A DNA stretch of 64,000 nt from Candidatus Cloacimonadota bacterium (GTDB lineage Bacteria; Cloacimonadota; Cloacimonadia; JGIOTU-2): NCBI GenBank assembly GCA_049903315.1, contig JBNGBT010000002.1, forward strand, positions 304,479 to 368,478. The letters run 5' to 3'. The position numbers were made by a program, and so were the translations under genes. Below the pieces are notes generated by a model. That model worked only from the letters and a program-made list of their open reading frames with translations. It did not search any database and was not told the origin of the DNA. Positions 2 to 48,324 of this stretch are shown one piece after another; within the stretch, counting starts at the first letter, position 1, and every line of letters begins with the position of its first letter.

Positions 2-664
2 CATGAAATAAACCAACCAATTGGATTGATCGCACTTGGAGTGGATAATATTTCTGAAAGATTAAAATCCGGAAGTGATGTATCTGCTGAATATCTGACG
101 GAAAAAATAGAAAAATTTTTCAAATATATTGATAGGATTCATCAGATAATTGACCATATAAGTACTTTCTCCCGAGATCAGAAAGATATAACATTTGATG
201 AAGTAAATATAAATACAATTGTTGAGCAAGCTTTAGCCATGATAAGATTGCAGTACGAGGATCAAGAGATTCATTTTGAAATAAATCTTGAAGAAGATCT
301 TCGAATGATATTGGGCAACTCATTCAAGATAGAGCAGGTTCTTCTTAATCTGCTATCCAATTCTCGTGATGCTCTTGAAGCAAAGACGAACACTGGTGTT
401 GATTTCCAAAAAACGATATCAATTAAAACATTTAAAAAAGGTAAATATATAATTATTGAATTCACAGATAATGGAATTGGCATGTCCTCAAAGGAGTTAG
501 AAAGCATTTTTGATCCTTTCTATACAACAAAAGGACCGGAAATGGGAACAGGATTGGGATTATCTATATGCTATGGTATTCTTGATGAAATGAATGCAGA
601 GATATCAGTAAAAAGTATTCCGGATGAATTCACGACTTTTATTATAAAATTTAAGACCTATTAA
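2..664 (+). CDS. Sensor histidine kinase, C-terminal part (HisKA + HATPase_c), 5'-truncated by window edge
   Basis: Frame open from base 2: H-box HEINQP, N-box EQVLLNLLSNSRDA, G1 DNGIGM, F-box FDPFYTTK, G2 GTGLGL. Confidence 0.95.
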   Translation, partial: HEINQPIGLIALGVDNISERLKSGSDVSAEYLTEKIEKFFKYIDRIHQIIDHISTFSRDQKDITFDEVNINTIVEQALAMIRLQYEDQEIHFEINLEEDLRMILGNSFKIEQVLLNLLSNSRDALEAKTNTGVDFQKTISIKTFKKGKYIIIEFTDNGIGMSSKELESIFDPFYTTKGPEMGTGLGLSICYGILDEMNAEISVKSIPDEFTTFIIKFKTY

Positions 665-701
665 CAATACAGTTTCATAACTGTAACCTTTTTACAACAA
701 C

Positions 702-717
702 TGTTCGATATCGACCA
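702..717. promoter_or_regulatory. Putative enhancer (UAS) site 1 for a sigma54 activator
   Basis: TGTTCGATATCGACCA, near-palindrome matching TGTTCGAwwTCGAACA; second copy at 794-809. Confidence 0.5.
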
Positions 718-793
718 ACAGCAAATAAATTATATAAATTGCAATATAACTGCAATATAAGTAAATTTCGTACCCATTTTACAATAAAAAAAT

Positions 794-809
794 TGACCGA
801 AATCGAACA
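794..809. promoter_or_regulatory. Putative enhancer (UAS) site 2
   Basis: TGACCGAAATCGAACA, same near-palindrome, upstream of the -24/-12 promoter. Confidence 0.5.
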
Positions 810-874
810 ATTTATTGATAAGTAAAAATATGTGATATTTGCTAATTGGCTAATGGTAAGCGAGTTAACATATT

Positions 875-890
875 TGGCACACAATTTGCT
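875..890 (+). promoter_or_regulatory. Sigma54 (-24/-12) promoter
   Basis: TGGCAC-ACAAT-TTGCT matches consensus TGGCAC-N5-TTGCW, directly upstream of the 908 ORF and the NtrC-family gene. Confidence 0.8.
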
Positions 891-907
891 AATATATAAG
901 CAAACGG

Positions 908-1252
908 ATGTTTCTTATGAATATACTTTTAGTAAACTTTGTAAAAGAAAAACTTAATGAGTTGGATGAGTACTTGCATACTCAGGGTTATGAAGTATAT
1001 TCTGCGGAAAATGACTTGGAAGCAGTTCAGATCCTCAATAATACACACATCAATGAGGTGGTAGTACACCTTACAAAGATCATGAATGTCGGTTTGATAA
1101 ATTATATGAATCATTATTTTTCTGATCTGCGTGTAGTATTAGTGACGAATAATTATGTTGAGCAGGCATTTTCCATAATCAAGAACACTGCATGTGAAAT
1201 AATCCAAGAACCTTTTACGTTATCTACTTTTAGGCAAACGCTCGAGAATTAG
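908..1252 (+). CDS. Stand-alone degenerate receiver (CheY-like) domain protein
   Basis: REC-like pattern (NILLV..GYEVYSAEN..EA..IL..VVLVT..IQEPF) lacking the acidic pocket, phospho-Asp and conserved Lys; start may be 917. Confidence 0.7.
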   Translation: MFLMNILLVNFVKEKLNELDEYLHTQGYEVYSAENDLEAVQILNNTHINEVVVHLTKIMNVGLINYMNHYFSDLRVVLVTNNYVEQAFSIIKNTACEIIQEPFTLSTFRQTLEN

Positions 1253-1343
1253 GTAAAATGAAAGTACAAATTGGTTTTCTTAACGTTGGCTCGGCTTATC
1301 GAATCAATCGGAGGAATATCGAGGAGAAAGGTTAGCTTTCTCA

Positions 1344-2708
1344 ATGGAAGAACTCAAAATCCTCATTTTAGATGATGAAAAGGGATATCGTGAGGGGATC
1401 GAGGAGTATTTGTTAACGCAGGGCTTCACTGTATTTCATGCGGAGAAGCCCTCGGAGGGATTTCAGATTTTAAAGGATGAACCGTGTGATATTGTGATAT
1501 TGGATCTCAAATTGCCGGAAATGAACGGTGTTCAGGTTCTCCGAAAAATTAAGAAATCCTATCCGGAAACTGAGATCATTATGATCACAGCACATGGAGA
1601 TATGGAAAGCGTTATTGAATCCTTGCGCTATGGAGCATCGGATTTCTTCATGAAGCCATTCCGGCTTCTGGATCTAAAGACAGCTATAGAACGCACAAAA
1701 AGGTTTATAGCTCTTCAGAATAGAATTACAGGCCTGAAGTTTCAGTACGATCATCTCATCTCTCAAATCAAGGATGCTGACGGCACAACCATAATCGGTA
1801 AGAGCAAAGCAATAAAGGAGATTTTGAACTTAATGAAAAAGGTTGCGGGAACTGATAATACAACTATTCTCGTAACTGGAGAAAGCGGAACCGGCAAAGA
1901 AATTGTTGCAAGAGGAATTCACTCATTAAGCGCTCGAAAAAGCCACACATTTTTGGATATCAATTGTAGCTCAATACCTGATAATCTTTTTGAAAGTGAA
2001 TTTTTCGGGCACAAGAGAGGTGCATTTACTGGCGCGATCGAACATAAATCGGGATATTTTGAGGTTGCAAACCATGGGTCGATATTTTTAGATGAGATCT
2101 GCGATATGCCCAAACATATGCAGACTAAACTTCTGAGAGTTCTGGAGGGGAATATTTTCAGAAGGATCGGGAGCAATAGAGATATAAAATTCGATGTGCG
2201 CGTTATCTCAGCAACAAATCAAGATATTGATTCATATGTGAAAAATCATGAATTTAGAGAGGACCTACTCTATCGTCTTAATACATTCCGCATTCACATT
2301 CCACCATTACGGGAAAGAAAAGATGATATAAAACCGTTACTTGATTATTTTGTGAAAGTATATTCCAAAAAGTTAAAGAAATCCATTAAAAATGTGAGTA
2401 ATCGGATTTATGATTATTTGCTCAAGTATGAGTTTCCTGGGAATGTACGAGAATTGAGGAATATGGTAGAAAGGGCTTTGATACTCTGCGATAATTCAAC
2501 ACTTCGACTGGAACATTTTACCCTTCTCGCAGGAAAAGATGCTGAAATTGATGAAGATACATTAGACCTTGCCGTGCTTGATAAGAAAGAAAAGGAGATG
2601 CTTACTAAAGCCCTCAAGAGATCTGGAAACAACAAAACAAATGCCGCAAAATTATTAAATATCTCCCGCTCGGCTCTTAATAGGAAAATAGAAAAACATA
2701 AACTGTAG
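1344..2708 (+). CDS. Sigma54-dependent response regulator (NtrC/AtoC family: REC-AAA+-Fis HTH)
   Basis: ILDD/LDLKLP receiver, GESGTGKE Walker A, GAFTGA, FLDEI, FPGNVREL, C-terminal HTH. Confidence 0.97.
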   Translation: MEELKILILDDEKGYREGIEEYLLTQGFTVFHAEKPSEGFQILKDEPCDIVILDLKLPEMNGVQVLRKIKKSYPETEIIMITAHGDMESVIESLRYGASDFFMKPFRLLDLKTAIERTKRFIALQNRITGLKFQYDHLISQIKDADGTTIIGKSKAIKEILNLMKKVAGTDNTTILVTGESGTGKEIVARGIHSLSARKSHTFLDINCSSIPDNLFESEFFGHKRGAFTGAIEHKSGYFEVANHGSIFLDEICDMPKHMQTKLLRVLEGNIFRRIGSNRDIKFDVRVISATNQDIDSYVKNHEFREDLLYRLNTFRIHIPPLRERKDDIKPLLDYFVKVYSKKLKKSIKNVSNRIYDYLLKYEFPGNVRELRNMVERALILCDNSTLRLEHFTLLAGKDAEIDEDTLDLAVLDKKEKEMLTKALKRSGNNKTNAAKLLNISRSALNRKIEKHKL

Positions 2709-2823: not shown

Positions 2824-2914
2824 CCTATAATCAGCTGTATCTAAGAAAATCGTTATTTTTCTTGACAAGCCCCTTAGTAAAAATATCAAGTATTCAAAAC
2901 ATGCTGGAGGCAGT

Positions 2915-4921
2915 ATGAAAAAGCTATTTATTATTTTTGTAATTTTATCATTTTTTATTACTATACCACTTTGTGCCCAATCAATAATCTGGCAAGAAAA
3001 TTTTAATACAAATCCCGGCACCTGGGCACTAGATTCAAACTGGAGTATTCAAAGTGGTGCATTAATGTTATCCTGGTCGCCCACAGTCGCTCCCTATGAT
3101 CTTAGTGCGACATCACCATTCATCAATTTACCGTTAAATGTAGGGGATCTGACTGTTTCTCAGTTTATTGACGAGTTTTCGACAAATACAGGAGAAGTAA
3201 CAAACATTGAACTGATTCATCCTGGAGGAACAACTGTTCTATGGAGTTTCGATTTGGTTGGTACTAATTGGGGTTATTCTGGTGGTAAAGATATAAGCTT
3301 CTCTTTATTCCCATATGCAGGACAGCAAGTTCAAATTAGATTTAGAAGTTACGGAGGAAGTACCTATAATTTCAATTATTGGTACATTTATAATGTTGCC
3401 ATTAATGCATCTCTCGATCATGACCTTGCAGCAACAAACATTTCCGGCAATAACATTCTTAATATCGGGCAGCAGGGATTATGGAATGTGACAGTCAAAA
3501 ACACCGGGCTTAATACTGAGTCTAATTATGAAGTAAATCTCATGCGAGAACCGGGCATCGTGCTGGGTTCTACTTTTGCAACTACTCCTCTCGCTCCTGA
3601 TCAACAAACCATCTATCAGTTCAACTGGACTCCGGATATAAGTGAAGTGGTCAATCTTTACGGGCAGGTTATTCTACCTGGTGATGAGTTCTTGGATAAT
3701 AATACGACAAATCCATTTTTGGTTAATATTTATCCTGATGACCCGATTAATGTGCTTGTCTGGGATAATGATAATGCTTCGGATATTGATGGAATAGGTA
3801 CACAGGTTTTTCTTGAAGAAGCTCTCACTGCAAATAATGTAACTTATGATACATACACATACCTGCCGGCAAATCTCACACCATATGATGCCATATTTGT
3901 TGCTCTTGGCATCTACTGCGTTGGCTGAGGCACTACACCTCCAGGCTCCGTCGGAGCCTCTGATCAAACGACTTTAATGAACTATCTTTATGGTGGACAT
4001 CCAATTTATATTGAAGGTTCAGATCTGGGATATTCTCACCAGGGAACAGCTTTCCTCGCAAGTCTCGGATGCAGTTTCTTGTCAAATGATACACAAAATA
4101 TTGGTACTATGACAGGAGTATCAGGTACTGTTGGAGAAGATTTTGTTTTTCCTTTCACTGCCAATACCGATGCAAATTACTCAGTAGATGAGATAGGCGG
4201 AATATTCAGCAGAAGTGTTGCATTCAGATCCGATAACAACTATTCCCGTACAGTTGCGTATGCAGGAGCGAATTATAGCACCATTGCATCAACACCGATA
4301 CTCGGCGGATTAGAAAATACTGATACAAACTCAAAAGCTGATTTGGTTGCAACATATCTCGGATACATGCTTAAAATAAATGGTGTATTTCGCGGTATTG
4401 TTACAGATAATAATACAGGCGATCCTGTTCAAAATGCCACAGTGAATGTAGGTACGTTTAGTGGTGTGACAAATTCATATGGACTTTGTGCGATAGAAGT
4501 TCCCCCCGGTTCATATGGTATAAGCTGCTCACATCCGAATTATGCAACTTTCGTGTATCCATCAGAAATTATAATAGATTATAATGACACATACTGGATG
4601 GATATCTCTCTTACTCCAAGTGTTTCAATTGATGATTTTGAGCAACAGGACGGCATCACGCGCATCTTTCCAAATCCCTTTACCATTCAAACCGCTATTA
4701 AATACTATATGAAATCTTCAGGAAATGTAGATATCAGTGTATTTAATATTAAGGGACAAAAGGTGTGTACTTTAGTTGATGAATACAAACAATCCGGCTA
4801 TCATGATAATACATTTAACAATTCATCTGAATATACTGCGGGACTTTCTTCTGGTATCTATTTCATGAAGTTGGAAACAGAGCAAGTCACTCAAATTGAA
4901 AAATTCATAATTCTTGAGTAG
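2915..4921 (+). CDS. Secreted multidomain protein (signal peptide, adhesin-like beta domain, CARDB-like, alpha/beta domain, carboxypeptidase-regulatory-like, FlgD/T9SS-type CTD); probable selenoprotein, 668 aa with Sec at codon 338
   Basis: ORFs 2915-3928 and 3977-4921 share a frame and are separated only by TGA 3926-3928 plus 16 sense codons; context C-V-G-TGA; downstream hairpin; signal peptide and CTD fall in different halves. Confidence 0.8.
3929..3960 (+). promoter_or_regulatory. Putative bacterial SECIS element
   Basis: AGGCTCC-GTC-GGAGCCT (3943-3959): perfect 7-bp stem, loop starting GU, loop 22 nt after the UGA; 22 of 32 bases G+C in an AT-rich gene. Confidence 0.65.
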
Positions 4922-4936
4922 AATAATTTATAACAG

Positions 4937-4971
4937 AAAAAGCCAGTTCAGTATGTGAGCTGGCTTTTTTT
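4937..4971. terminator. Bidirectional intrinsic terminator
   Basis: AAAAAGCCAGTTCA...TGAGCTGGCTTTTTTT between the convergent CDS and tRNA. Confidence 0.8.
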
Positions 4972-4982
4972 GTAATAAAAAA

Positions 4983-5057
4983 TGGTAGCCCCAAGGGGAA
5001 TCGAACCCCTGTTACCGGAATGAGAATCCGGCGTCCTTACCCCTAGACGATGGGGCC
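4983..5057 (-). tRNA. tRNA-Glu (anticodon CTC)
   Basis: Reverse complement GGCCCCATCGTCTAGGGGTAAGGACGCCGGATTCTCATTCCGGTAACAGGGGTTCGATTCCCCTTGGGGCTACCA: cloverleaf, GTTCGA T-loop, encoded CCA. Confidence 0.97.
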
Positions 5058-5112: not shown

Positions 5113-5246
5113 ACACACCCCGATTCCTTCGGAATCACCCCTCTCGAGAGGGGATTTGTACGATTGTTTTTTTAAAATTAAGTATGATATTGAAAACATC
5201 AAAATTTCTCCTCTTGAGAGGAGTCCGGCTTAGCCGGGAGGTGTGT
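5113..5246. repeat. Composite palindromic REP-doublet (REPIN/BIME-like) element, copy 1
   Basis: ACACACCCC-hairpin-CACCCCTCTCGAGAGGGGATTT, AT-rich spacer, CTCCTCTTGAGAGGAGT-CCGGCTTAGCCGG-GAGGTGTGT. Confidence 0.9.
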
Positions 5247-5361
5247 AAATTAAATCCAATTCTGCATTGATCATGATGGAAAAAATTATTAATTGACAAA
5301 ATTTACCATTAAAATTGGGAAAATATTAAGAATTAGTTCATTAGAAATATTAGGAGCTGTT

Positions 5362-6336
5362 ATGAATTATGAAATAATTCAAAAATTAAGATATAAGTTA
5401 CAGAAAAGAGTAAGAAGGTTGAATTCAATTGAAGTGCCGCAATTGTATCATTCTTATTTAAAACAATTTTGGGTATTTTTACATGAATCACCGATTTTTT
5501 CCGGAATATTGGATGATTTATCAAAAAGAATTCCTGAAGCAGAAAAATTAGCAAATGATATAGTATTGAAAAAAGAAACAATTTCATTCAATATTGAATT
5601 AGAATTGGTTGCAACTTGTTACTATGTGATTGACATATGTGTTAAATCTAAATCTAATGACATAGAGATGAAAATTGGATTTATATATAAAAAAGCAGGT
5701 CCATTTGCTAAAAACCTTGAATTTTTTCATCACTATTTTGTGGAAACCCTATATGATTATATTGATGAGAATTTAGATGATCAGAAATTGCTTTTAGCAT
5801 TATTACGAAGATATAAACAAAGATGCGAATGGTTTAGAAGAGATTCCTTACTCAAAATGTACAATGAAAATACTCAGATTGGTGAAAAATCCTTAGCAAT
5901 GGATTTATATGAATATTTATTTGATCAAGGGATTGAATTTTCCATTGAACCTTCATCAGCTTCTGGCAAGCCAGATTTGATTGCTGCACAGAATACGGAT
6001 GATCCATTAATTGCAGATGCAAAAATCTTTGATCCTCAAAAGAGTAAAAATATAGCATATATTACAAAAGGTTTTAATCAGATTTACCAATATACTATGG
6101 ATTACAATGAACCATTTGGATATCTTGTAATTTTCAAGATTTGTGAAGAGGATCTCAAGTTGGATTTTAAAGAAAAAGAACGAGCAATACCTTTTGTTAT
6201 TTATAATAATAAGACAATATTCTTCATCGTAATTGATATTTGTAAATATGAGAAAAGTGCTTCACAAAGAGGTAAATTAAAAGTATGTGATCTAAGGGAG
6301 GATGAATTAATTAAAATTATTAAAACCAAAGAATAA
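5362..6336 (+). CDS. Hypothetical protein with C-terminal PD-(D/E)xK-like nuclease motif
   Basis: ATG 5362 after AGGAG; motif SGKPDLI..PLIADAK..GFNQIYQY; very AT-rich. Confidence 0.7.
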   Translation: MNYEIIQKLRYKLQKRVRRLNSIEVPQLYHSYLKQFWVFLHESPIFSGILDDLSKRIPEAEKLANDIVLKKETISFNIELELVATCYYVIDICVKSKSNDIEMKIGFIYKKAGPFAKNLEFFHHYFVETLYDYIDENLDDQKLLLALLRRYKQRCEWFRRDSLLKMYNENTQIGEKSLAMDLYEYLFDQGIEFSIEPSSASGKPDLIAAQNTDDPLIADAKIFDPQKSKNIAYITKGFNQIYQYTMDYNEPFGYLVIFKICEEDLKLDFKEKERAIPFVIYNNKTIFFIVIDICKYEKSASQRGKLKVCDLREDELIKIIKTKE

Positions 6337-10353: not shown

Positions 10354-10387
10354 AAGCCGGATTTGCTGCCATGCCTTTCCGGCTTTT
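10354..10387 (+). terminator. Possible intrinsic terminator / stem-loop after acs
   Basis: AAGCCGGA...TCCGGCTTTT with a long loop. Confidence 0.5.
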
Positions 10388-31808: not shown

Positions 31809-32860
31809 AAAAATTAATTTTTATTTGTTTTGCAGTTTTAATAAGTGTGCAAATTCTCTCCGCACAGGAGTTCGACTACTCTCTTTACAACAAGATCGAT
31901 ATCAGAACCTTCTATGACAGCAATGTGCTCAACCTCTCCTCCAAAGACATTCATGAATTTCTGAGTGGGCAGGATCCGGAAAAATATCATATTAAATCAG
32001 TTGATGACATGGTGAGTTCATTTGATATTGAACTTGGTTTCAAACACAACCTTGTTATGGGGCATACACAGATCAGCAAATTCAAATTTTCTTATGACAA
32101 ATATTGGAAGAACGGATTTAAAGATTTCAAATTTGTGAGTTTTGAACTCATTCAATATTTCAGCAAATATGTAGATGTTCGAGCGAAATATTCTTATTAT
32201 CCATATATTTTCATCAATAAATATGAAAGCTATTTCGATCCTTATTATGGATATCATGATTTTACTTATTCAAAAAATCTGGTATGTTCGGGAATGAATA
32301 TCCGCATTCTTGATTATGTTGAGTTCGGATATAATTTTGAATATACTGATCAAAACTACAATGACTATTTTCCTGAATATGATGCCTATAATTTCATTAA
32401 TGAGGGCTGGATCGGTTTTAAACCCATGGATAATAGTAAAATTAAATTCAAATACTCATATATCTCGTCAATTGCACGAGCTGAAAAAGTGTATCAACCA
32501 GGCAGCATCGAGATTCGCGACCCTTCCTATGATGCAAATGTTTTTTATACCTCAATATCATTTCCTTTATTTAATAGCCGGCGTGGTAATGCAATAAAAT
32601 TGTTTCACAGTTTTGAGTGGGAAAATAAATATTTTCAATCACCATTTTCTCCGGTAGTTGATCCATTCCATTCAGGAAGAAAAGACAACATCTTTCATTA
32701 TGAGGGCTGGCTCATATATCCGATCTGGAACCTTTTTGATTTCCGGACATTTTATACCTACGAAAGCAGAAAAACAGAATCACCAAATGGAACACTCGTA
32801 TCTGATGAGAAGAATTACATAACACGAACATATGGTGTATCAATCCAGGTGAGATTCTAA
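31805..32860 (+). CDS. Putative outer-membrane beta-barrel protein
   Basis: Signal peptide, YDSNV motif, aromatic alternating strands, C-terminal Phe (VSIQVRF); overlaps upstream gene. Confidence 0.7.
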   Translation: MKKLIFICFAVLISVQILSAQEFDYSLYNKIDIRTFYDSNVLNLSSKDIHEFLSGQDPEKYHIKSVDDMVSSFDIELGFKHNLVMGHTQISKFKFSYDKYWKNGFKDFKFVSFELIQYFSKYVDVRAKYSYYPYIFINKYESYFDPYYGYHDFTYSKNLVCSGMNIRILDYVEFGYNFEYTDQNYNDYFPEYDAYNFINEGWIGFKPMDNSKIKFKYSYISSIARAEKVYQPGSIEIRDPSYDANVFYTSISFPLFNSRRGNAIKLFHSFEWENKYFQSPFSPVVDPFHSGRKDNIFHYEGWLIYPIWNLFDFRTFYTYESRKTESPNGTLVSDEKNYITRTYGVSIQVRF

Positions 32861-32887
32861 AACTTGCATCTCATAAATAATTATATT

Positions 32888-32919
32888 CTGCCATGCATTT
32901 TTGTGTGGCAGTTTTTTTT
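32888..32919 (+). terminator. Intrinsic terminator
   Basis: CTGCCATGCA..TGTGTGGCAG followed by T8. Confidence 0.8.
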
Positions 32920-33118
32920 AAAGTAAGCCTTACTCGTTCCTAAGTTGAACTTGGGAACGAGAAAGTATTATTTTTGCGAGTTTAACACAACATATCTAAT
33001 ATTCATCAATTATACTGGAATTTGTTGGTTTTTTATTTTTTTCTACTTGACAGATTTATTTTTGAAAAGTTATAAAGTCCTAACAACAAAAATAACTATA
33101 ATTTGCCGGGAGGTAAAA

Positions 33119-35254
33119 ATGAAAAAAGTTGTAATAATTATATTATTGAGTTTATTAATATCTACAAGTAGTCTTTATTCATTTGCTGGAGGTGATGGAT
33201 CATCCGGAAATCCCTATCAAGTAGCAACTGCTGATCATTTGAATGATGTAAGAGATTATTTAGATAAGTATTTCATTCAAACTGCGAACATTGTTGATTT
33301 GAGCAGTACATACTCTAATTGGGAACCGATAGGGACATTAGCCTTACCATTTATTGGACATTATAATGGAGATGGATATTGGATTTCAGGGCTCACAATT
33401 AATAGATCATCAACTCCTAACGTAGGTCTCTTTGGATGTATTGGAGTTACCACAGATAATACAACGGCAACATCCATTACAAAACTGGGATTGACTACTG
33501 TTAATGTTATAGGAGCAAGAGGAACTGGAAGTTTGGTTGGCAGAGTCAAAGGCAATTCACAGACTCTCATTGAACAATGTTACGTCTATTCTGGAACAGT
33601 TATAGGTGATGGTGCAACAGGGGGGCTTGTTGGGGCTAATAATAGTTATGTTGAAAATCCAGCTAACAAAAATTATAATCCAGTTATAAGCGAGTGTTAT
33701 GCAGATGTGAGTGTCTCCTGGTCTAAAAGTGGTCTCGGTGATAAAATTGGCGGATTAACCGGTTGTAATCAAAAAGGTATTATTAGAGACAGTTATGCAC
33801 GTGGTTCTGTTACTGTTGATAACGATCCATCTGCTGGATCTCCAGATAGAATGGGTGGTTTAGCTGGCTGTATACTTATTAGAGGATATATAGAAAATTC
33901 ATATTCAACTGGCTTGGTTTATACTGAGGGTACGGTGCTTCACGTAGGTGGTTTTGTTGGTAACGGCGGCGGTGGAGGAAGTGACGGGAATACATATGAT
34001 TGTTTTTGGGACACTCAAACTTCAACTCGAGCCACAAGTTCTCCGACATCAGGTTGCACAGGTAAGACTACTGCTGAGATGAAAACTGAAAGTACCTATA
34101 CTGATGCAGGATGGGATTTCACAAACATATGGAGTTTTTCAGAAGGCAACTATCCTGTATTAAGATATGTTATACATCCAGAGCCTAAAACTATTACTCT
34201 TACTGATGGAAGTTCATTTTCTCCGTCAGTAACTCCCGGTTCTACTGATCAGCCGATTGGACGTTTTTCTTTATCGGCTAGTGATACTGGAAGCGAACTA
34301 TCTCGTGTAACTATACGACTTGATGGCACACGTACTGGAGCAAGTAATTTCAAGTTATGGAAGAGTGCTAATTCCACATTTGGAAGTGACACTCAACTCG
34401 GTTCTACTGTAGTAACAGATCCCGGAGATGCAAAAACTGTAAGCTTTTCTTTTAACGAAGGACTTACAACAACTATGTTCTATTACTTTCTTACCTGTGA
34501 TGTTGCAGGTGGTGCCACTGGTTCAATAGAAGGATATTTAACAGACAATACAAGTCTTACATTTTATGATGGCGTCATTAGCGCAACAATAACGGACGCA
34601 CCTTTATCAAGCGGTGCAGCAACCCTCCCTGTCGAGCTCTCAACCTTTACTGGTCAATACATAAATAGCGTTCCCACTCTTTACTGGTCAACGCAAACAG
34701 AAACCGACAACCTTGGCTGGAATGTGTATCGTAACAAAGACAATGACTTTACATCTGCAGATCGTATAAACGGAGACCTTATACCAGGTCATGGTACTAC
34801 TTCACAAGTCCAGAATTATGTATATAAAGATATAAACGGTACTTTTGATGCTGGTGAGAATTACTGGTACTGGCTGGAAAGCATTGATTACGGCGGCACA
34901 GTAAATCACTACAATAGGGTAGCGCTCATTCACATTCCTGAAATTCAAAATCCTGATCCTCATAGTGCAGTACCACGAAAATACGGATTGCAGTCCGGTC
35001 CAAATCCCTTTAATTCTAACCTTTCAGTGAGTTATATGCTTCATCAAACCGATATGGTACGAGTTGAGATATACAACATGACTGGACAGCTTGTTGCACA
35101 GTTCAATGAAGGGCTGAGAACAGCGGACAGAGAATATATAATAGACTGGGACGGCAAAGACCTATATGGACAGAATGTAGCGTCCGGTGTCTTGCTTATA
35201 AAACTCATTACGTCAGAAGGTTCTGAGACAACGAAAGCCATTTTGTTAAGATAA
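33119..35254 (+). CDS. Secreted GLUG-motif protein with FlgD/T9SS-type CTD
   Basis: GGAGG RBS; FAGGDGSSGNPYQV, repeated GGLVG, GKTTAEM..GWDF..IW, LPVELSTF, PNPFN..IYN..GQ. Confidence 0.88.
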   Translation: MKKVVIIILLSLLISTSSLYSFAGGDGSSGNPYQVATADHLNDVRDYLDKYFIQTANIVDLSSTYSNWEPIGTLALPFIGHYNGDGYWISGLTINRSSTPNVGLFGCIGVTTDNTTATSITKLGLTTVNVIGARGTGSLVGRVKGNSQTLIEQCYVYSGTVIGDGATGGLVGANNSYVENPANKNYNPVISECYADVSVSWSKSGLGDKIGGLTGCNQKGIIRDSYARGSVTVDNDPSAGSPDRMGGLAGCILIRGYIENSYSTGLVYTEGTVLHVGGFVGNGGGGGSDGNTYDCFWDTQTSTRATSSPTSGCTGKTTAEMKTESTYTDAGWDFTNIWSFSEGNYPVLRYVIHPEPKTITLTDGSSFSPSVTPGSTDQPIGRFSLSASDTGSELSRVTIRLDGTRTGASNFKLWKSANSTFGSDTQLGSTVVTDPGDAKTVSFSFNEGLTTTMFYYFLTCDVAGGATGSIEGYLTDNTSLTFYDGVISATITDAPLSSGAATLPVELSTFTGQYINSVPTLYWSTQTETDNLGWNVYRNKDNDFTSADRINGDLIPGHGTTSQVQNYVYKDINGTFDAGENYWYWLESIDYGGTVNHYNRVALIHIPEIQNPDPHSAVPRKYGLQSGPNPFNSNLSVSYMLHQTDMVRVEIYNMTGQLVAQFNEGLRTADREYIIDWDGKDLYGQNVASGVLLIKLITSEGSETTKAILLR

Positions 35255-35276
35255 CTTTATTAATCTAAATTAAATT

Positions 35277-35310
35277 AAACTGCCATTCATTTCGAGTGGC
35301 AGTTTTTTTT
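35277..35310 (+). terminator. Intrinsic terminator (same stem as 32888)
   Basis: AAACTGCCATTC..GAGTGGCAGTTTTTTTT. Confidence 0.85.
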
Positions 35311-35342
35311 CTAGTAGTACTGAGAAGCTGATCTAATCGGAA

Positions 35343-35690
35343 TTATTTTTTCAAATTGTTAGGTGTCCCAACTGTTGATTTCAGTTCGAAATCTACTGTC
35401 GTAACACCATTACCAACTTCAATACTTTCTATTAATGTAACTCTGTATTCCGTGCTTTTTAACGCTCGACCATTATAGGTCTCATTTAGAATATCCATGG
35501 AATAGAAACCGTTCACATCAGTATAAGCATCAAAACAGATATGCTGCCCATCATTCGTGGTAAAATGTACTTTTGCATTGAATATTGGTTCACCTGTGTC
35601 TTTATTGGTGACATAACCAGTTACAGTACCAGCGATTGCCATATTTACTGTAATTAATACTAAACTTATGAGTGCAATGAGTTTTTTCAT
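35343..35690 (-). CDS. Small secreted carboxypeptidase-regulatory-like domain protein
   Basis: Signal peptide; GTVTGYVT..DTGEPI.NA.V..TD.NG.Y..VDFEL; AGGAG RBS. Confidence 0.8.
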   Translation of the reverse strand: MKKLIALISLVLITVNMAIAGTVTGYVTNKDTGEPIFNAKVHFTTNDGQHICFDAYTDVNGFYSMDILNETYNGRALKSTEYRVTLIESIEVGNGVTTVDFELKSTVGTPNNLKK

Positions 35691-35731
35691 TGTAACTCCT
35701 TTCTTTCTTTTTTATGTGCACTCATCATTAG

Positions 35732-35747
35732 TGCAACATTCGTGCCG
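35732..35747 (-). promoter_or_regulatory. Sigma54 (-24/-12) promoter for the 35343-35690 gene
   Basis: Minus strand CGGCACGAATGTTGCA (GG-N10-GC), about 40 nt upstream of the start codon. Confidence 0.7.
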
Positions 35748-35951
35748 GAGAAACATTATTTTTTGATATTTTTCACTAACTTGATTCTCCTATGCCAATT
35801 AAGGGTATGTTATTTTTATTATTATTTATCGTCGTATCAAACTTATTGCAAAAAAATTGTGCAGCAGCTTCCCATTTTGCAGCAACAAAAGAACAGTGCA
35901 AATTCTAATCCACCTTTATTGTGATAAATAAATATCGTATTTTCTCAAACC

Positions 35952-35970
35952 GCTGTTCATTATGAGCAGC
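35952..35970. promoter_or_regulatory. Putative enhancer palindrome
   Basis: GCTGTTCA-TTA-TGAGCAGC (1 mismatch); weaker copy at 35867-35885. Confidence 0.45.
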
Positions 35971-36259
35971 ATTAGTTTTCTCAGGCTGGATTTCACTCTT
36001 GGGTGGAGTTCAGTATGAAGAAAGAAGACATGATCGCACTGAAGCCCATCCGCTTGCAGGTATTATGAGGTCAAGGCTTGTCGAATATATTGTAGAACAA
36101 AGCAACAGAACAATTGTTGCAGAGTTATTTTCATGTCGAGTGCGAATATCCAAATGTATTTCTCACATATTCTTGACGAAAAAAAAGGATCGAAAATTAT
36201 CTCATCAATTAAAACATGCAGGTTTTCTGCAGAGATCACAAATTTAAAGGAGTAGTAAA

Positions 36260-37786
36260 ATGAAGAAAATCATTTTAACATTTATTCTTTTTTTATTCTT
36301 ATCGAGCACACTTTGTGCAGGGGCATTTCTTATCTCAGGCGGTGCATTCAGCCACACCTATCCGGTTGCTGCATTCAATGGTGCAAACTACCAAACTGCA
36401 TGGGTTGACAAGCGTTATAGTTCCTCTTATTATGCATTTTGGGGCAAGCAGGTTTCTTCCGATGGAACTCCAATAGGTACTGATACAGAAATTGAAGCAT
36501 ATCATTATTATCTGTCTTTTATGCCCGATATGTGTACTAACGGGAACAACTGTTTGTTGGTTTGGGAAAGATATCGAGCAGCCTATGGACCGGGAGATGC
36601 TTACGGAATATTAATTGATCGGGATGGGAATCCCATCGGTTCGAAATTCAGGATTTCTATTGGAAATACCGTGAATGCAAATTTTCCACATGGCGATTTT
36701 GACGGCACAAATTATCTTCTCGTATGGCAACTCGGTACTCCGAATAACGGATGCAAAATACAGGGACAATTTGTTTCACAAACAGGCACATTAGTGGGAA
36801 GCAACTTTGATATTCGCCCTGTAGGTATGGCAACAGGTGTCGATCAGATATATCCTGCAGTGAAATTTAATGGCACAAATTACCTTGTTGTCTGGGATGA
36901 TGATCGCACTGGCAGCAGAGATATTTATGGTCAGCTTGTTGGAACGGATGGCAGTATGGTTGGAAGTGATTTTCCAATATCAACTGCTGGCAATGATCAG
37001 ATGCTTGTCGATCTTGCATGGAGTGGTTCCGGCTTCTGTGCAGTGTGGCAGGATGATCGCTGGGATACTAATGATGCAAGTATTTTCGGTCAATTGGTCA
37101 ATGCAAACGGAACATTGAATGGAGATAATTTCTGTATTTATGAAGCCCCAGGTGACAGTGGATGCGGTTGGCCCTCAGTCGCTTCTTCTGGAGATTCCTA
37201 TCTAGCAGGATGGCATAAAGAATTCCTCGTTTATGATGAAAGCCCTCTTGATGAAACTCAAATATTTATAAGAGAAGCAGCAGGTGTTGATATTACACGA
37301 CCTGTCGTATGGTATGATGTACAGGCACAAAAAATTTCTCTTACAGGCGGCTTGGTCGATCCTACAATAGATGTGTGTGTGGAACAGTACCACCAAGATC
37401 AGGTTTATATCACTTCAGATGGAGACGATTATCTCATGGTGTGGGAGGATTCTCGGAACGGAAATCAGTATTATGTTGTGTATGGAGCGATAATTGATGA
37501 CATACCCGTGAGTGTTGATGATCCTATCGTGTATAACAGAATAGTGATTTCTCCCAATCCATCTTCTCAACACATTAATGTGAAATTTTCAATGCCAACA
37601 TCTCAAAAAATTGCACTCGAACTTTATAATGTAAAAGGACAGAAAATCACATCGTTCCATGACGGGATTATATCAGCAGGAACACATGAACTTATCTTTG
37701 AAACGAATGTTCCTTCAGGAATTTATTTCATGAAAATGCAGACAGGATCTGATGTATATATGGAGAAATTTCTTATTCTGAATTAA
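36260..37786 (+). CDS. Secreted beta-repeat (propeller-like) protein with CTD
   Basis: Signal peptide; repeats G.NYL.VW....GQ.V..DG...G.xF.I; SPNP..YNVKGQ..SGIYF CTD. Confidence 0.85.
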   Translation: MKKIILTFILFLFLSSTLCAGAFLISGGAFSHTYPVAAFNGANYQTAWVDKRYSSSYYAFWGKQVSSDGTPIGTDTEIEAYHYYLSFMPDMCTNGNNCLLVWERYRAAYGPGDAYGILIDRDGNPIGSKFRISIGNTVNANFPHGDFDGTNYLLVWQLGTPNNGCKIQGQFVSQTGTLVGSNFDIRPVGMATGVDQIYPAVKFNGTNYLVVWDDDRTGSRDIYGQLVGTDGSMVGSDFPISTAGNDQMLVDLAWSGSGFCAVWQDDRWDTNDASIFGQLVNANGTLNGDNFCIYEAPGDSGCGWPSVASSGDSYLAGWHKEFLVYDESPLDETQIFIREAAGVDITRPVVWYDVQAQKISLTGGLVDPTIDVCVEQYHQDQVYITSDGDDYLMVWEDSRNGNQYYVVYGAIIDDIPVSVDDPIVYNRIVISPNPSSQHINVKFSMPTSQKIALELYNVKGQKITSFHDGIISAGTHELIFETNVPSGIYFMKMQTGSDVYMEKFLILN

Positions 37787-37807
37787 TTATACATTGTTCT
37801 AAATTTA

Positions 37808-37857
37808 GCTGGGCTCTGACAGATGATTTTTCGTATAAAACTGAGCCCAGTTTTTTT
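37808..37857 (+). terminator. Intrinsic terminator (long loop)
   Basis: CTGGGCTC...GAGCCCAG followed by T7. Confidence 0.65.
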
Positions 37858-41667: not shown

Positions 41668-43716
41668 TTATTTCCAGAGAAGTTTTCCCGTTTTATCGAT
41701 GCATTGTAATTGTGAAAATTGAGTTTCGAGAATAAGGGCAACACCGTTTTTAAAATCATTAACCTGGAAGAATTGTGGATCGATGATCGTTTTGCCGGTT
41801 TTATCAATATAACCCCAGACAGAACCCATCTTTACTGCAGCAAGACCTTCAATAAACGATCTCGCATCATCGAATTGGTAGTCGATTACTTTGGTTGCTT
41901 TATTATCGATAAAACCCCATTTGCCACTGTATAGCACAGGTGCCAGTCCCTCTTTGAAATCCCGGACATTTTGATAGCCCGGTAATATCTGCCAAATGCC
42001 TTTTTTATCTATGTAACCGCACGCATCGCTATCGGTTTGAGCACCAGCGAGTTCTTCTGAAAAGTTCAAAACGCCTTTAAATTTTATTTTAACTGCTACA
42101 TTTCCTTCACGATCTACAAAACCAAATTTTCCGTCTTTTTTTACACGAGCCATACCCTCGATAAAATCATTTGCTTCATAGAATTCTGGCATCATTAATG
42201 AATACAAACGTTTACCTTCTTTATCTATATAACGCCATTTTCCATCTAATTTTACTGCTGCATAACCCTCCGAAAATTGATGAACATCTTCGTATTGCGG
42301 TTCTATGACAATTTTTCCTGTTTTATCAATGAATCCATATTTATAATTCATTCTTACAGGAGCTAATCCTTCATGAAAATTATTTGATACTTCAAAAACG
42401 GGATTAATAACAATTTCACCTTTTTCATTTAGGAAACCATATTTGTCGTCTATTTCAATAGGAGCTAATCCATCTACAAATTTACTACTCAGAGCGTAAT
42501 CGAAATATGGTTTGATAACATATTCACCTTTTGTGTTGATAAATCCTGATTTTCTATCATCCCATGTAGCAGCTAATCCCTCGGAGAAACTTCTTACATC
42601 ATTGAATTGAGGAGAGATTACTATTTCACCTTTTTTGTTAATAAAGCCCCACTTGCCATTCATTTGTATCGCACATAAATTTTCAGAAAAGTATAGAACA
42701 AGATCAAATTGCGGTTCTATGACGATCTTACCTTTTTTATTTACAAATCCCCAGAGATTGTCTATCTCAATACTGGCTATGCCATCCTGGAATGAACTGG
42801 CGTTTTCAAATTGAGAATCGATGACGAATTTACCTTTTTTATTTATGTATCCATATTGAGAATTGATCTTTGCTGGTGCCAATCCTTCGCTAAATCTTCC
42901 AACACTCTCAAATTGAGATTTGATAATTTCATTACCTTTTTTGTCGATAAATCCCCATGCATCTCCAATTTTCACTCCAACTAATCCTTCGCTAAATGAC
43001 CAGCTTGCATATTTATATTGAGGATGGATTACATCATTACCATCGTTATCTATAAAACCCCAATTGTCGTTGTATTCAACTGCTGCTAAACCTTCTGAAA
43101 AATCCATTGTTAAATCATAATCGGTTGGACCAATGACAATATTGCCTTGTTTATCGATGTAGCCCTTTTGATCATCAACTACAATTTGAGCACGATCTTC
43201 ATAAAAATTGTACGCTAAGTTAAATTTTGGTTCGATAACGACCGCACCATTTTTGTCGATATAACCCATACGATGCACACCATCACAGTCTAACGACCGG
43301 AACTGAACTGCTGCGAGCCCATCTTTGAAATTGTTACATGATGTAAATCTTGGGAATATTACGAATTTACCGGTTTTGTCGATGTAACCGGCATTATTAG
43401 AGAAAATGACGCATGCTAATCCTTCGCTAAATCCTGGAGGTTTTGTATAGAATAGTGGTTCAACTATCATGTCACCCTTTTCATCAATGAATCCCCAGTA
43501 AGATCCAACTTTGACAACTGCCTTACCCTCCATAAAGAAGTCGATTTCATCAAATTGAGGGGATATGATAACATCTCCTTGTGCATTCATGTAACCCCAT
43601 TTTGATCCTTCACGATAGGGGAGTAAATTACTTGTTTCTGCTAAGCAAAACGAATTTGCTATGAATAGGAAGTAAATGCTAAGCAATGCTAGATTGAGCA
43701 TTAATTTACGAGCCAT
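41668..43716 (-). CDS. Long WG-repeat (KWG) secreted protein
   Basis: Many FSEGLA.V..KWGFI.KKG..VI.PQF repeats; AAGGAG RBS supports start 43716. Confidence 0.92.
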   Translation of the reverse strand: MARKLMLNLALLSIYFLFIANSFCLAETSNLLPYREGSKWGYMNAQGDVIISPQFDEIDFFMEGKAVVKVGSYWGFIDEKGDMIVEPLFYTKPPGFSEGLACVIFSNNAGYIDKTGKFVIFPRFTSCNNFKDGLAAVQFRSLDCDGVHRMGYIDKNGAVVIEPKFNLAYNFYEDRAQIVVDDQKGYIDKQGNIVIGPTDYDLTMDFSEGLAAVEYNDNWGFIDNDGNDVIHPQYKYASWSFSEGLVGVKIGDAWGFIDKKGNEIIKSQFESVGRFSEGLAPAKINSQYGYINKKGKFVIDSQFENASSFQDGIASIEIDNLWGFVNKKGKIVIEPQFDLVLYFSENLCAIQMNGKWGFINKKGEIVISPQFNDVRSFSEGLAATWDDRKSGFINTKGEYVIKPYFDYALSSKFVDGLAPIEIDDKYGFLNEKGEIVINPVFEVSNNFHEGLAPVRMNYKYGFIDKTGKIVIEPQYEDVHQFSEGYAAVKLDGKWRYIDKEGKRLYSLMMPEFYEANDFIEGMARVKKDGKFGFVDREGNVAVKIKFKGVLNFSEELAGAQTDSDACGYIDKKGIWQILPGYQNVRDFKEGLAPVLYSGKWGFIDNKATKVIDYQFDDARSFIEGLAAVKMGSVWGYIDKTGKTIIDPQFFQVNDFKNGVALILETQFSQLQCIDKTGKLLWK

Positions 43717-43823
43717 GGATAATCTCCTTTCAGTTAAAAAAGTTGATATAGCTATACTCATTTTGATATTTAACAAATATGCGATAGATTTACGTCAAGA
43801 AATTGGATAATGGAAACTGTGTC

Positions 43824-44471
43824 TTATTTTTTCGGTAAAACACTTCCTTGCCAGAGCATGATAACGAAAAATATACTTACAATTCCAAACAGCCAGGTAA
43901 GATCAACTTCCATGGTTTGGATTGATGAAAATATGAAAAGATAAAGTACTGTGAAAATAATACAGGCAATTGCAAAGAAATTACTAAGTTTTTTGCCAAG
44001 AGCATCATCTCTGAATTTCTTTGCCCTGAATGCGTTGATAACGATGAAAACGATGGAAATAACAAAGCACAGGATCAGGGCATAGACAAAGTTTTCATCG
44101 TAGGTTCCCCATCCTTCGAGAAATACAATCGGTGATTTGCCGATCATAATGATTGCCACGATCCATGGAATGAGTAAAATCGCAGAAATGATCTTCACTC
44201 CAATTTGACGTTTTTCTGTAGGAAGCAACTGATACATAAGCAAAAGCATGAAAGGAATTTCAAAATAGAATCCTATGCTTGCAATACGACGGGCAATTTC
44301 ATAGCCCAACCAGCCACTCCAGAGAAAGAGGTCGCCAATATGATAGACAAGCAAACTTAATGTAATAAGAATGATTGCCGAGTTCTCTTTGGATTTCTCC
44401 TTTTTAATAAGGAAATATACAAAGAAGATTACCAGAATAATTACTGCTATTAATGGTACAATCCATTCCAT
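43824..44471 (-). CDS. Multi-pass membrane protein (about 7 TM)
   Basis: Successive hydrophobic segments; GGAGG RBS before ATG 44471. Confidence 0.8.
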   Translation of the reverse strand: MEWIVPLIAVIILVIFFVYFLIKKEKSKENSAIILITLSLLVYHIGDLFLWSGWLGYEIARRIASIGFYFEIPFMLLLMYQLLPTEKRQIGVKIISAILLIPWIVAIIMIGKSPIVFLEGWGTYDENFVYALILCFVISIVFIVINAFRAKKFRDDALGKKLSNFFAIACIIFTVLYLFIFSSIQTMEVDLTWLFGIVSIFFVIMLWQGSVLPKK

Positions 44472-44539
44472 TTTAATCCTCCGTACGCTTTTTTTTCTCG
44501 TTTCCAATACGGCTATGGAAACATTTATTATTTAATAGA

Positions 44540-46798
44540 TCAATTAACATTGAAATATTTATATACCGCCTTTATACCGTCGACAAAAGCTGCTGGAAAT
44601 GTGCTAAAGTGAGTTTGTCCTCGAAGTATTTCTAATTTCATGTCCAAATATTTATAATTTCTTTCTTTGAGTGTATCAATAAGTTTGATAGTTCCATTTT
44701 TCACTCCCCAGCTATCCATCTCGCCATAGGACAAAAACAATTTAATATCCAATACATTATTTGCATCAGCGAATTCCTGTTCATATGTCATGGCAATTTC
44801 TTCGTCCCACCAGAGAGAGGGACTTATTAACACATACCTATTAAAAAGTTCGGGATTTTTGAAAAGAACATACGTTCCAAAGAGTCCACCCAAAGAATAT
44901 CCAACAATAGTTCTTTCATTTTCTGATATTCGGTAATTAGTTTCTATCAGATGGAACACATCGTTTTCGATGAATTCCATAAATTCTTGAGCACCGCCAC
45001 CACCAGGGTAAGCTTTGTAATCCAATCTTTCGGTAGGACACATATCCCGGATCCTCTTTGCATACCAATCATCAAAGGTTTGGTTATATGATATACCTAC
45101 TATTATACATTCAGGTACTTCTTGTGCAAATCCCATCATGAACATAGATTCTACTACGATTCCAAATTGATAGTCGGCATCTAAAAGGAAAATTGCAGGA
45201 TACGTTTTATTCGTTTTATAATAATCTGGAGGTAATGATACAAATAAACTGTATTCTTCGTCTATAACATCAGATCGTAATTTTAGTAATTCTGTATTTT
45301 TTAATGTGATTTCAGAAAGAACAATTGTCTCTTCTTCCGGAATATATTCTTCATAGTATTCATTTCCGTCTTCATCAATATAAAACGAGATACTGTTTAG
45401 TTCTACTTTTGCCAAACCATTGTTAAAACCGCATAATGCATTATCGAATTTCAACGGACATATCTCCTTATAATCGCTATTCACAAAAGTAATTTTCTTA
45501 TCTGACCCAATACCTACAGCAACATAAACAGGTCCATTCTCAAATGGATTTTCATTAACCTTTAGGAACTTCTCATACATCGGCCCATAGTCATACTTCG
45601 GTTTAATATGATATTCTCCATCCTTGTTTATGAATCCCCATTTTCCATCTTTTTCAACTGCTGCTCCTCCTTGAGAGAATGGAAATACACGATCATAAAT
45701 AAATTGAGTAATAGGTTTTCCTGATGTGTTAATAAATCCATAATGTCCATCAGATTTTACTCTTGCAAAACCTTCCGAGAATGTGCCAGCCATATCATAA
45801 GTATGAGGAATGACAATATTTCCTTTTGTATTTATGTATCGGTAATTGCCATCAACTAATATCACGGCAAGATCTTCTTTAAAAGGACTTGCTGATTCAT
45901 AAATAAAAGGGATGGTTATATTTGCTTGTTTATCAAGGAAACCATATTTACCATTCAGAACCGCACTTGTATATCCTTCTGAAAAAGGATGAATATAATC
46001 ATAAATGATTGGTATTATTTCTTTTCCTTTTATATTGATAATTCCATATTTATCATCTTTTTTAACCACAGCATATCCATTTTGAAAGTCTGCTGCATTT
46101 TGGTAAATAGCTGGAATAACAAACTTTCCTTCAGAATTTATATATCCATATTTATTATTTTGCTGTGCACTCGCAACTCCTTCTGAAAAATTTCCACAAA
46201 AACTAATATCATCAGTAGTTGTTGGTTCCCCTTTTGAATTCATCGAAGCATATATTGTATCAGTTTCTGAGTTTTTATAATAAATCAAGGTATTGTTAAA
46301 ATATTTTAAATCTTGGAATTCAAAATCAGTTATTTGATTGCCATTGTGTTCAAATAATGCAAACATTTTTAATGAATCGTCACGGACAAATATAACGTTT
46401 TCATAAATCTGTATTTCATCATTATAATAGCAGTCATATTCACAGGGTACGATTTCTTCTCCTCGAATATTAATAACACCATACTTCTCATTTTTTTTTA
46501 CTTTTGCCAAATCATATATAAAGTCTTGGATATTATTATATTTAAAGGGTATTACAATATCGTCATTTTTGTCGATAAGTCCATATTTATCAAATATCTT
46601 AACAACGGCAATTCCATTATTAAAGGGTTGAACTTCGTCATAAATTGGCTTTATAATCAATTCCTTATTCTTATTTATAAATCCCATTTTAGCACCAATT
46701 CTATAAGGGATAAGTTCAGGTGTTTGAGCAAAGCATAAAGAATATATTATGATAAATACAATAAGAGCAAATTCGATAATTATTTTACTTTTTTTCAT
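44540..46798 (-). CDS. WG-repeat protein fused to an IroE/BesA-like alpha/beta hydrolase
   Basis: N-terminal WG repeats; C-terminal VSLPPDY..YP..FLLD, GGGAQEF, GYSLGG, SPSLWW, QTHFS. Confidence 0.9.
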   Translation of the reverse strand: MKKSKIIIEFALIVFIIIYSLCFAQTPELIPYRIGAKMGFINKNKELIIKPIYDEVQPFNNGIAVVKIFDKYGLIDKNDDIVIPFKYNNIQDFIYDLAKVKKNEKYGVINIRGEEIVPCEYDCYYNDEIQIYENVIFVRDDSLKMFALFEHNGNQITDFEFQDLKYFNNTLIYYKNSETDTIYASMNSKGEPTTTDDISFCGNFSEGVASAQQNNKYGYINSEGKFVIPAIYQNAADFQNGYAVVKKDDKYGIINIKGKEIIPIIYDYIHPFSEGYTSAVLNGKYGFLDKQANITIPFIYESASPFKEDLAVILVDGNYRYINTKGNIVIPHTYDMAGTFSEGFARVKSDGHYGFINTSGKPITQFIYDRVFPFSQGGAAVEKDGKWGFINKDGEYHIKPKYDYGPMYEKFLKVNENPFENGPVYVAVGIGSDKKITFVNSDYKEICPLKFDNALCGFNNGLAKVELNSISFYIDEDGNEYYEEYIPEEETIVLSEITLKNTELLKLRSDVIDEEYSLFVSLPPDYYKTNKTYPAIFLLDADYQFGIVVESMFMMGFAQEVPECIIVGISYNQTFDDWYAKRIRDMCPTERLDYKAYPGGGGAQEFMEFIENDVFHLIETNYRISENERTIVGYSLGGLFGTYVLFKNPELFNRYVLISPSLWWDEEIAMTYEQEFADANNVLDIKLFLSYGEMDSWGVKNGTIKLIDTLKERNYKYLDMKLEILRGQTHFSTFPAAFVDGIKAVYKYFNVN

Positions 46799-48078: not shown

Positions 48079-48183
48079 GTATAAGAAAGATTTTTCGTCA
48101 CAGAGGATACCAGTTTTTGTTTCACTTCTATCCGGAAGCAGAGAACTTGAATCAAGAATAGGAACTAATTTTACAATTAATAG

Positions 48184-48319
48184 CTCACGGATTTTCACGG
48201 ATGAACATAGACGAATGAAATTTATTTTTAATATTTCTTAAATTTTCTGGATTAGTTCTTATCAGTATTATCCGTGTTAATCAGTGTTCCTTTTTCTTTT
48301 TTTTGTGTTTTTCGTGGTT
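48184..48319. repeat. Intergenic inverted short-unit repeats (CACGGAT / ATCCGTG; TTCGTGG)
   Basis: CACGGATTTTCACGGATG versus ATCAGTATTATCCGTGTTAATCAGTG between convergent genes. Confidence 0.55.
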
Positions 48320-48324
48320 TAATT

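Follow-up and report, generated by a model that had tools for sequence, protein, structure and literature searches.

We describe a gene at positions 2915..4921 (+) that almost certainly encodes a selenoprotein, with UGA 338 predicted from genomic signs to be decoded as selenocysteine (Sec). The gene lies in a 64,000-nucleotide stretch of DNA from a Candidatus Cloacimonadota bacterium, hereafter the window, and represents a real, apparently uncatalogued selenoprotein family. The decoding system is a known one; the scaffold and the predicted location of the protein are apparently new. The sole internal stop of the frame is TGA 3926-3928, and the two open reading frames on either side of it were rightly recognized in the initial annotation as halves of one coding sequence. 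Read-through of this TGA as Sec gives a protein of 668 aa that ends at TAG 4919-4921 and carries U338 in the sequence C-V-G-U. The read-through sequence around the site, YDAIFVALGIYCVG-U-GTTPPG, contains C335 (TGC 3917-3919) and U338 (TGA 3926-3928), which make up a CxxU motif (3917..3928, +) in the loop after strand 3; its immediate context is FVALGIY-C335-V-G-U338-GTTPPG. SelB and Sec-tRNA would decode UGA 338 by means of a selenocysteine insertion sequence (SECIS) located inside the coding region, at +18..+34.

The gene boundaries are consistent with a single translation unit. A Shine-Dalgarno sequence, GGAGG (2906..2910, +), precedes ATG 2915, and orthologues of the gene have 666-668 aa and the identical TGA. 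No Shine-Dalgarno motif is present in the 21 nt upstream of ATG 3977, where translation of the second half would have to restart, and the corresponding column holds Met in just 3 of 28 aligned homologues, in line with the earlier remark that this ATG lacks a properly spaced ribosome binding site. Downstream, a terminator-like hairpin with A- and T-runs (4935..4971, +; -21.7 kcal/mol, z -7.75) suggests that the gene is monocistronic. This hairpin was missed by a simple scan; a promoter scan of the window returned 11 sites, for 9.8 expected.

Conservation of the TGA carries much of the argument. The domain that bears it was matched 128 times, in 84 of the 232 genomes of the phylum, taken to be Cloacimonadota going by named relatives. 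Stop codons over these matches were counted by hand. Exactly one TGA is found in 95 of the 105 strongest matches (E <= 1.5e-18), distributed over 74 of the 232 genomes, and none in the other 10; the 23 weaker matches contain zero TGA, and TAA or TAG occurs in none of the 128. The codon at the site itself was read from the DNA, giving 30 TGA and 2 TGC among 32 sites in one set, and 42 TGA, 5 TGC and 1 TAT among 48 in another. After pooling with metagenome loci and removal of duplicates, 76 distinct copies remained, with 70 TGA, 5 TGC and 1 TAT. The TAT copy is a paralogue without the loop; one additional loop-less match did not align. Among the close copies, the motif Cys is present in 74/75 and the Sec site is TGA or TGC in 75/75. 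In 20 weaker matches that were picked for inspection, the site is TGA in 19 and TGC in one, each time three codons after a Cys. A paralogue of 345 aa in the same genome, which consists of a signal peptide, the domain and a C-terminal sorting domain (CTD), has 32-34% identity and a TGA at the same codon (HWCFG-U-GSTPPG). Finally, six database proteins have CxxC at the aligned site (P0005, P0006, P0008, P0011, P0013 and P0031). Hence, TGA or Cys is retained at the aligned position with similarity on both flanks, as expected for a Sec site. A WDNDNxS motif, having served as the search pattern, is biased in its conservation and was excluded from the evidence.

Outside the phylum the domain is rare: two samples, of 121 and 151 genomes, gave one and five positives respectively, all with TGA and all from one zixibacterial class; selB is present in the 5/5 zixibacterial hosts tested. 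Armatimonadota and Ignavibacteria, two names taken from record titles, were left out of the phylum count. The former was dropped because the stretch concerned (L059) is the same as that of a Cloacimonadota genome (G147), and the latter because GTDB places the genome concerned (G234) in the class to which the zixibacterial matches belong.

Immediately 3' of the UGA, the hairpin noticed in the initial annotation proves to be of the bacterial SECIS type (3943..3959, +), with a 7-bp stem, an apical loop GUC that begins 21 nt after the UGA and a fold energy of -10.7 kcal/mol. The published bacterial model asks for a loop of 3-9 nt, a stem of 4-16 bp, a G in the first two loop positions, a spacing of 16-37 nt and a minimum free energy <= -7.5 (PMC13188914), all of which were found here with our own implementation of that model. 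By itself the hairpin is modestly above chance, since 11 of 200 shuffles of the 60-nt fold are equally good; its significance comes from covariation. Across 29 distinct sequences, 86.7% of the stem cells are paired, compared with 36-52% when the partners are slid, and 40 stem cells are altered on both sides, a number reached in 0/500 shuffles. Of the five covariation measures, two are no higher than in the shuffles, namely how many pairs covary and how many pair types occur. RNAalifold finds the stem unaided. In addition, the hairpins are more stable than synonymous recodings of the same seven residues (mean -7.7 vs -3.3 kcal/mol, with uniform codon choice), and p <= 0.1 in this test is reached by 64 of 70 Sec genes vs 11 of 221 control stretches. 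The hairpin is also retained in 4 of 5 Cys genes, which would fit recent Sec-to-Cys changes. Within the same genome, similar hairpins are positioned 17-20 nt past the UGA in the candidate genes for SelD, a peroxiredoxin and a C_GCAxxG_C_C protein.

The machinery for Sec insertion is complete in this genome (96% complete): selA, selB and selD score above cut-off, and selC is a tRNA-Sec(UCA) that forms one cluster with selA and selB. The selD gene carries an in-frame TGA of its own, and a second SelD is fused behind a NifS-like domain. A tRNA-Sec of Cloacimonetes type is on record in the portion of PMC5330540 covered here. Over the phylum, selA is found in 106/232 genomes; the largest family (f5) has neither the domain nor selA (0/98 each). 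Among the 74 genomes with TGA, 67 have selA, and 5 of the remaining 7 have selB and tRNA-Sec; neither selA nor selB was found in the other two, which are 59% and 64% complete. All six genomes with Cys forms alone have selA. Because related genomes are not independent, we take this co-occurrence as a matter of consistency and attach no statistic to it.

These results make it very improbable that the TGA is a true stop, be it that of a nonsense pseudogene, a boundary between two genes, an assembly error or a codon reassigned to Trp or Gly. It is true that gene callers split the gene, as had been anticipated: the best 150 library matches include 9 that stop immediately short of the site and about 58 whose start lies past it (hand count). 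In addition, Trp occupies the Sec position in two database proteins (P0007 and P0041), and a third, P0024, is without CxxU; these three are protein records only, in which the Trp may stand for TGG or for a TGA as translated by a gene caller. Against a pseudogene or a pair of genes, the same TGA codon is kept down to ~30% identity with TAA and TAG never seen, the SECIS covaries, Cys alternatives exist, the UGA interrupts one folded domain, and the restart Met is hardly conserved. Reassignment is ruled out because TGA terminates 363 of the 1,780 open reading frames of at least 200 aa in this genome. As to assembly error, contigs from 4/4 sequencing runs (four studies) are identical to the window over 3700-4200, the region of the TGA, although any of them may be the source of this DNA; independent support comes from the homologues that share the codon.

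The protein begins with a signal peptide (aa 1-21; 2915..2977, +), recognized by eye from its basic start, hydrophobic core and LCA-Q type cleavage site. It is followed by an all-beta MAM-like jelly-roll (aa ~22-165; 2978..3409, +; AlphaFold model pLDDT 90.5), for which the best Foldseek matches are MAM-Ig modules (E 5.7e-9, TM 0.41 over a two-domain model) and which occurs in some family members only. Next comes a CARDB Ig-like domain (aa 170-265; 3422..3709, +), for which PF07705 stays below cut-off (E 8e-4) and Foldseek finds 3idu (TM(target) 0.78, rmsd 2.3). The N-terminal part, to which the label 'adhesin' had been given, consists of this MAM-like beta-sandwich and CARDB alone. The Sec-bearing alpha/beta domain (aa 275-490; 3737..4384, +) is followed by a CarboxypepD_reg-like beta-sandwich (aa 493-567; 4391..4615, +; PF13620 E 9.8e-9) and by a type IX secretion system (T9SS) type A C-terminal sorting domain (aa 584-666; 4664..4912, +). 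The members of the family that were inspected range from 338 to 964 aa, with the Sec domain either first or behind beta-domains.

The sorting domain is identified above cut-off by both PF18962 (E 7.6e-11) and TIGR04183 (E 3.8e-11), in line with the earlier placement of a signal peptide in the first half and a secretion domain in the second. SprA, PorU and PorV of the T9SS machinery also score above cut-off in the genome, and the parts of PMC11285876 covered here list the phylum as a possible T9SS holder. A signal-peptide-like start is present in every member that was read, and a CTD-like tail in the complete members that were inspected. From these sequence features we infer that the protein is T9SS type A cargo: its signal peptide would direct export, and its CTD would then let the type IX system carry it to the cell surface.

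With U modelled as C, the AlphaFold model of the Sec domain is a single fold (pLDDT 90.5, pTM 0.91), as had been supposed when the UGA was said to cut through one alpha/beta domain; the CxxU loop is its least certain part (residues 61-70, mean pLDDT 58). On the basis of this model, compared by Foldseek and VIA-align, the domain is predicted to be class I glutamine amidotransferase-like, with a flavodoxin-like alpha/beta core. The best match is 2gk3 (STM3548; Z 16.9, rmsd 2.9, 187 residues aligned), followed by the GH42 middle domain (Z 16.3), the Planctomyces GATase1-like 3rht (16.2), ThuA-like proteins (14.8) and the IFT52 N-terminal domain (13.6). These share the fold at 6-16% identity; the present domain differs from them in apparently having no elbow Cys. 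To our knowledge, the CxxU loop is not known from STM3548, 3rht, GH42, ThuA-like or IFT52 domains. Judging from topology, the loop is placed behind strand 3 and corresponds in position to the oxyanion loop of class I enzymes. The elbow after strand 4 reads YIEG[SAVT]D and contains no Cys; in a register that is likewise set by topology, the presumed nucleophile position is Gly in 70/74 and Ser in 4/74. On the sheet edge that bears CxxU, a Glu is invariant (74/74) and an Asp and a His are conserved.

Searches of Pfam, NCBIfam (June 2026) and PDB sequences assigned the Sec domain to no family, apart from two chance-level PDB rows. Its distant homologues without the CxxU loop are domains of secreted C25, M14, S8 and C1 peptidases. 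This accessory domain, of the CLG-x-Y-x-x-N-H-x-L type and from the same lineages, is homologous at ~28-34% identity and is T9SS cargo too, but lacks the CxxU and TPPG loop, and the CxxU/CxxC forms branch apart from it. In a tree of 84 rows, in which 14 loop-less rows were sampled at random, CxxU/CxxC forms one branch (SH-aLRT 95) with the Cys forms scattered within. A direction from Sec to Cys is only suggested, the tree being a quick, midpoint-rooted version.

The view that no known selenoprotein family matches still stands. The 119-family catalogue of PMC13188914 has no T9SS family in its Table 1 and mentions neither T9SS nor Cloacimonadota; the scan covered those of its families that have a Pfam or NCBIfam model, a few entries being defined by CDD or PANTHER identifiers or having no model. 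T9SS selenoproteins and Cloacimonadota are likewise not mentioned in the available portions of PMC12013277 and PMC13326102, the string 'selen' is absent from those of PMC12590816 and PMC8542988, and BSepDB, according to the part of its description covered, screens for known families. Literature searches of sources other than subscription papers found no description of the family, and its Cys members are named merely T9SS-domain or hypothetical proteins in databases. Known bacterial CxxU selenoproteins (SelW-like, AhpD-like, GrdA and the TonB-dependent receptor FCYXU type; PMC13188914) share with the present family an in-frame UGA, a coding-region SECIS that fits the consensus model, Cys homologues, CxxU and host Sec machinery. 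Unlike all of these, our family has a different fold and no NCBIfam match, and is T9SS cargo with variable beta-domains. Another comparison is with NF004836, a selenoprotein annotated as a glutamine amidotransferase and therefore of the same broad fold class. However, there is no HMM match between the two, and no T9SS CTD is described for NF004836. By our own reading of its motif, Sec in NF004836 would replace the catalytic elbow Cys, whereas in the present family Sec is in the CxxU loop after strand 3 and the elbow is Gly/Ser. With the family come ~95 TGA genes from 74/232 genomes of a single phylum, and in addition a small clade in zixibacteria; scaffold and predicted T9SS surface location are missing from the 2026 catalogue, and public protein sets hold the family mostly as two fragments.

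CxxU and UxxC are redox motifs (PMC13188914), and the C335/U338 pair may form a surface thiol/selenol redox site; we judge the chances of this reading to be about even. In the Sec domain we would have a class I amidotransferase-like scaffold devoid of its own catalysis, as is found in accessory modules of secreted peptidases, of which one subfamily gained an extra CxxU-G-x-T-P-P loop at what topology indicates to be the edge of the class I active site. A new Sec site could plausibly arise in this way, by gain of a loop on a non-catalytic domain. C335 and U338 would then cycle between selenenyl-sulfide and selenol/thiol, and the domain would catalyse thiol redox reactions in the envelope or at the surface, with disulfides, polysulfides or peroxides as the substrates to be reduced. 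Its partners in recharging could be DsbD, a TlpA-like redoxin and those UxxC thioredoxin-like T9SS selenoproteins that are encoded beside selC-selA-selB, while the flanking beta-domains, which vary freely between members, would serve as stalk or binding modules.

The genomic context bears on this proposal in both directions. In contig C22 of the same genome, about 36 kb (33-69 kb) hold a DsbD-TlpA-DUF6029 cluster, two UxxC CTD selenoprotein candidates, selC-selA-selB, the NifS-SelD fusion and, directly after the latter, the 345-aa paralogue. On the other hand, the gene itself is ~240 kb from this cluster, behind two-component genes, and its own neighbours (a histidine kinase, a receiver, a sigma-54 activator and tRNA-Glu) give no hint of redox. 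Redox neighbours are found in a minority of the 44 loci, three having DsbD/TlpA close to the gene and two having thioredoxins; for comparison, such neighbours accompany roughly 3 of the 171 CTD genes of the own genome. Sec genes are near a family gene in 5 of the 44 loci, four of these belonging to one clade; related loci in this set are not independent.

As the main alternative, the CxxU loop could bind soft metals or metalloids (Cu+, Hg2+, Zn2+, Se/As species) for scavenging, buffering or handover at the surface, a possibility that we consider real but doubtful. A third Cys, found where helix 1 begins in 53/75 close copies, would suit a metal site equally well, as would the invariant Glu and the conserved Asp/His on the same sheet edge, and most predicted Sec-ligand interactions involve metals (PMC13188914). 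However, the third Cys is Thr (T296) in the protein described here and, by eye, is missing from 20/20 weaker matches that retain CxxU/CxxC. As to neighbours, the short form, made up of signal peptide, domain and CTD, is located behind NifS-SelD both in the own genome and at 4 of the 44 loci, and a CutC gene comes after the short form at 2 of 44. The NifS-SelD-linked copies form one clade, however, and no mer, cop or czc genes were recognized among the 55 neighbours scanned, out of ~180 neighbour clusters.

Less likely still is a structural or regulatory role for the C-U pair as a selenenyl-sulfide, or one as the nucleophile of a hydrolase or transferase with the amidotransferase fold, in a surface adhesin or peptidase-accessory module; we consider either unlikely. 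Such roles would agree with the loop-less homologues in C25, M14, S8 and C1 peptidases and with structural matches that span both non-catalytic domains (GH42 middle domain, IFT52) and enzymes, and the invariant acidic residues could make a catalytic site. Nevertheless, Sec is nearly always catalytic or ligand-binding, and it would be unusual for ~100 genes to invest in Sec and a SECIS just to make a structural bond; the presumed position of the canonical nucleophile is Gly/Ser. The natural Cys forms of the family (e.g. P0006, P0008) permit biochemistry without Sec expression.

The protein is one of several Sec candidates with a CTD in this genome. A genome-wide filter of our own design, which may miss short or atypical genes, reduced 5,804 TGA read-through candidates to 49 with a SECIS-like hairpin and to 8 that are also coding-like. 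These are SelD, a peroxiredoxin, a C_GCAxxG_C_C protein and five proteins with a signal peptide and a T9SS CTD, including the one described here. In Sec-using Cloacimonadota, we tentatively envisage, with more doubt than confidence, that much of the selenoproteome lies outside the outer membrane as a T9SS-displayed redox relay, leading from DsbD/TlpA to UxxC thioredoxin-like surface proteins and on to CxxU proteins. The present family would then be a non-catalytic amidotransferase-like accessory domain made into a redox enzyme by the gain of one loop and later spread over many architectures. Together with the other CTD candidates, it makes the idea that anaerobic marine bacteria carry out selenium chemistry outside the cell open to test. 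Among known selenoproteins, the closest parallel for handling by T9SS is the Omp28-related NF045500 (GOS_C, UxxC), which is likely exported; its UxxC is near the N-terminus of an Omp28-like domain that has no similarity to the domain studied here. One of the CTD candidates of this genome resembles the NF045500 model (E 4.5e-23, below cut-off).

Upstream of the window's selenoprotein gene and on the same (+) strand lie genes for a histidine kinase, a small receiver-like ORF and a sigma-54 activator (window 26-2708), a set kept only among genus-level orthologues. Between the activator gene and the selenoprotein gene sits a 34-residue hydrophobic ORF (2719-2823, +) with an AGGAG site, and downstream a tRNA-Glu gene occupies the opposite strand (4983-5057, -).

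Elsewhere in the same genome, contig C22 carries a cluster encoding DsbD, an unknown protein, TlpA-TonB_C and DUF6029 (32855-37855; L155:4856-9855), which heads a series of genes for proteins with the C-terminal sorting domain (CTD) extending to the sel genes. Two genes on this contig encode candidate UxxC selenoproteins with the CTD. The first (43286-45499, +; L021:5287-7500), with an in-frame TGA at 43424 and a strong SECIS, specifies a signal peptide, an Omp28-like domain with UxxC (STS-U-GYC), PKD, a beta-helix and the CTD; its match to the Omp28-related selenoprotein model NF045500 is below the cut-off. The second (48072-49994, +; L021:10073-11995; TGA at 48252) is directly followed 3' by selC-selA-selB, and its product combines a signal peptide, an N-terminal domain with UxxC (GTG-U-GGC), for which no family match was found, PKD and the CTD. 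DsbD/TlpA also occur in the surroundings of a family member at locus L058, where an ORF directly 5' of that member (5131-6039, +), with an in-frame TGA (SGCG-U-GGSG) and a SECIS-like hairpin, is possibly a further selenoprotein.

SelD is present in two forms: a Cys-type SelD fused to a NifS-like cysteine desulfurase (C22:65216-67456; L022:9217-11457) and a separate, stand-alone Sec-containing SelD on C55. The fusion is placed before the short paralogue of the family also in loci L068, L073, L092 and L095.

A CxxU candidate (LCEYG-U) is encoded on C69 (9698-11845, +; locus L097; TGA at 10379); its 715-residue product comprises a beta-helix and the CTD. On C11, peroxiredoxin (44166, -) and C_GCAxxG_C_C protein (485117, +) genes, each with in-frame TGA and SECIS, belong to already known selenoprotein families. 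Finally, a stretch with tRNA genes on either side (C22:162600-163865; L011) matches a translation GTPase and has two TAA codons in frame; it may be a broken or mis-assembled EF-Tu copy.
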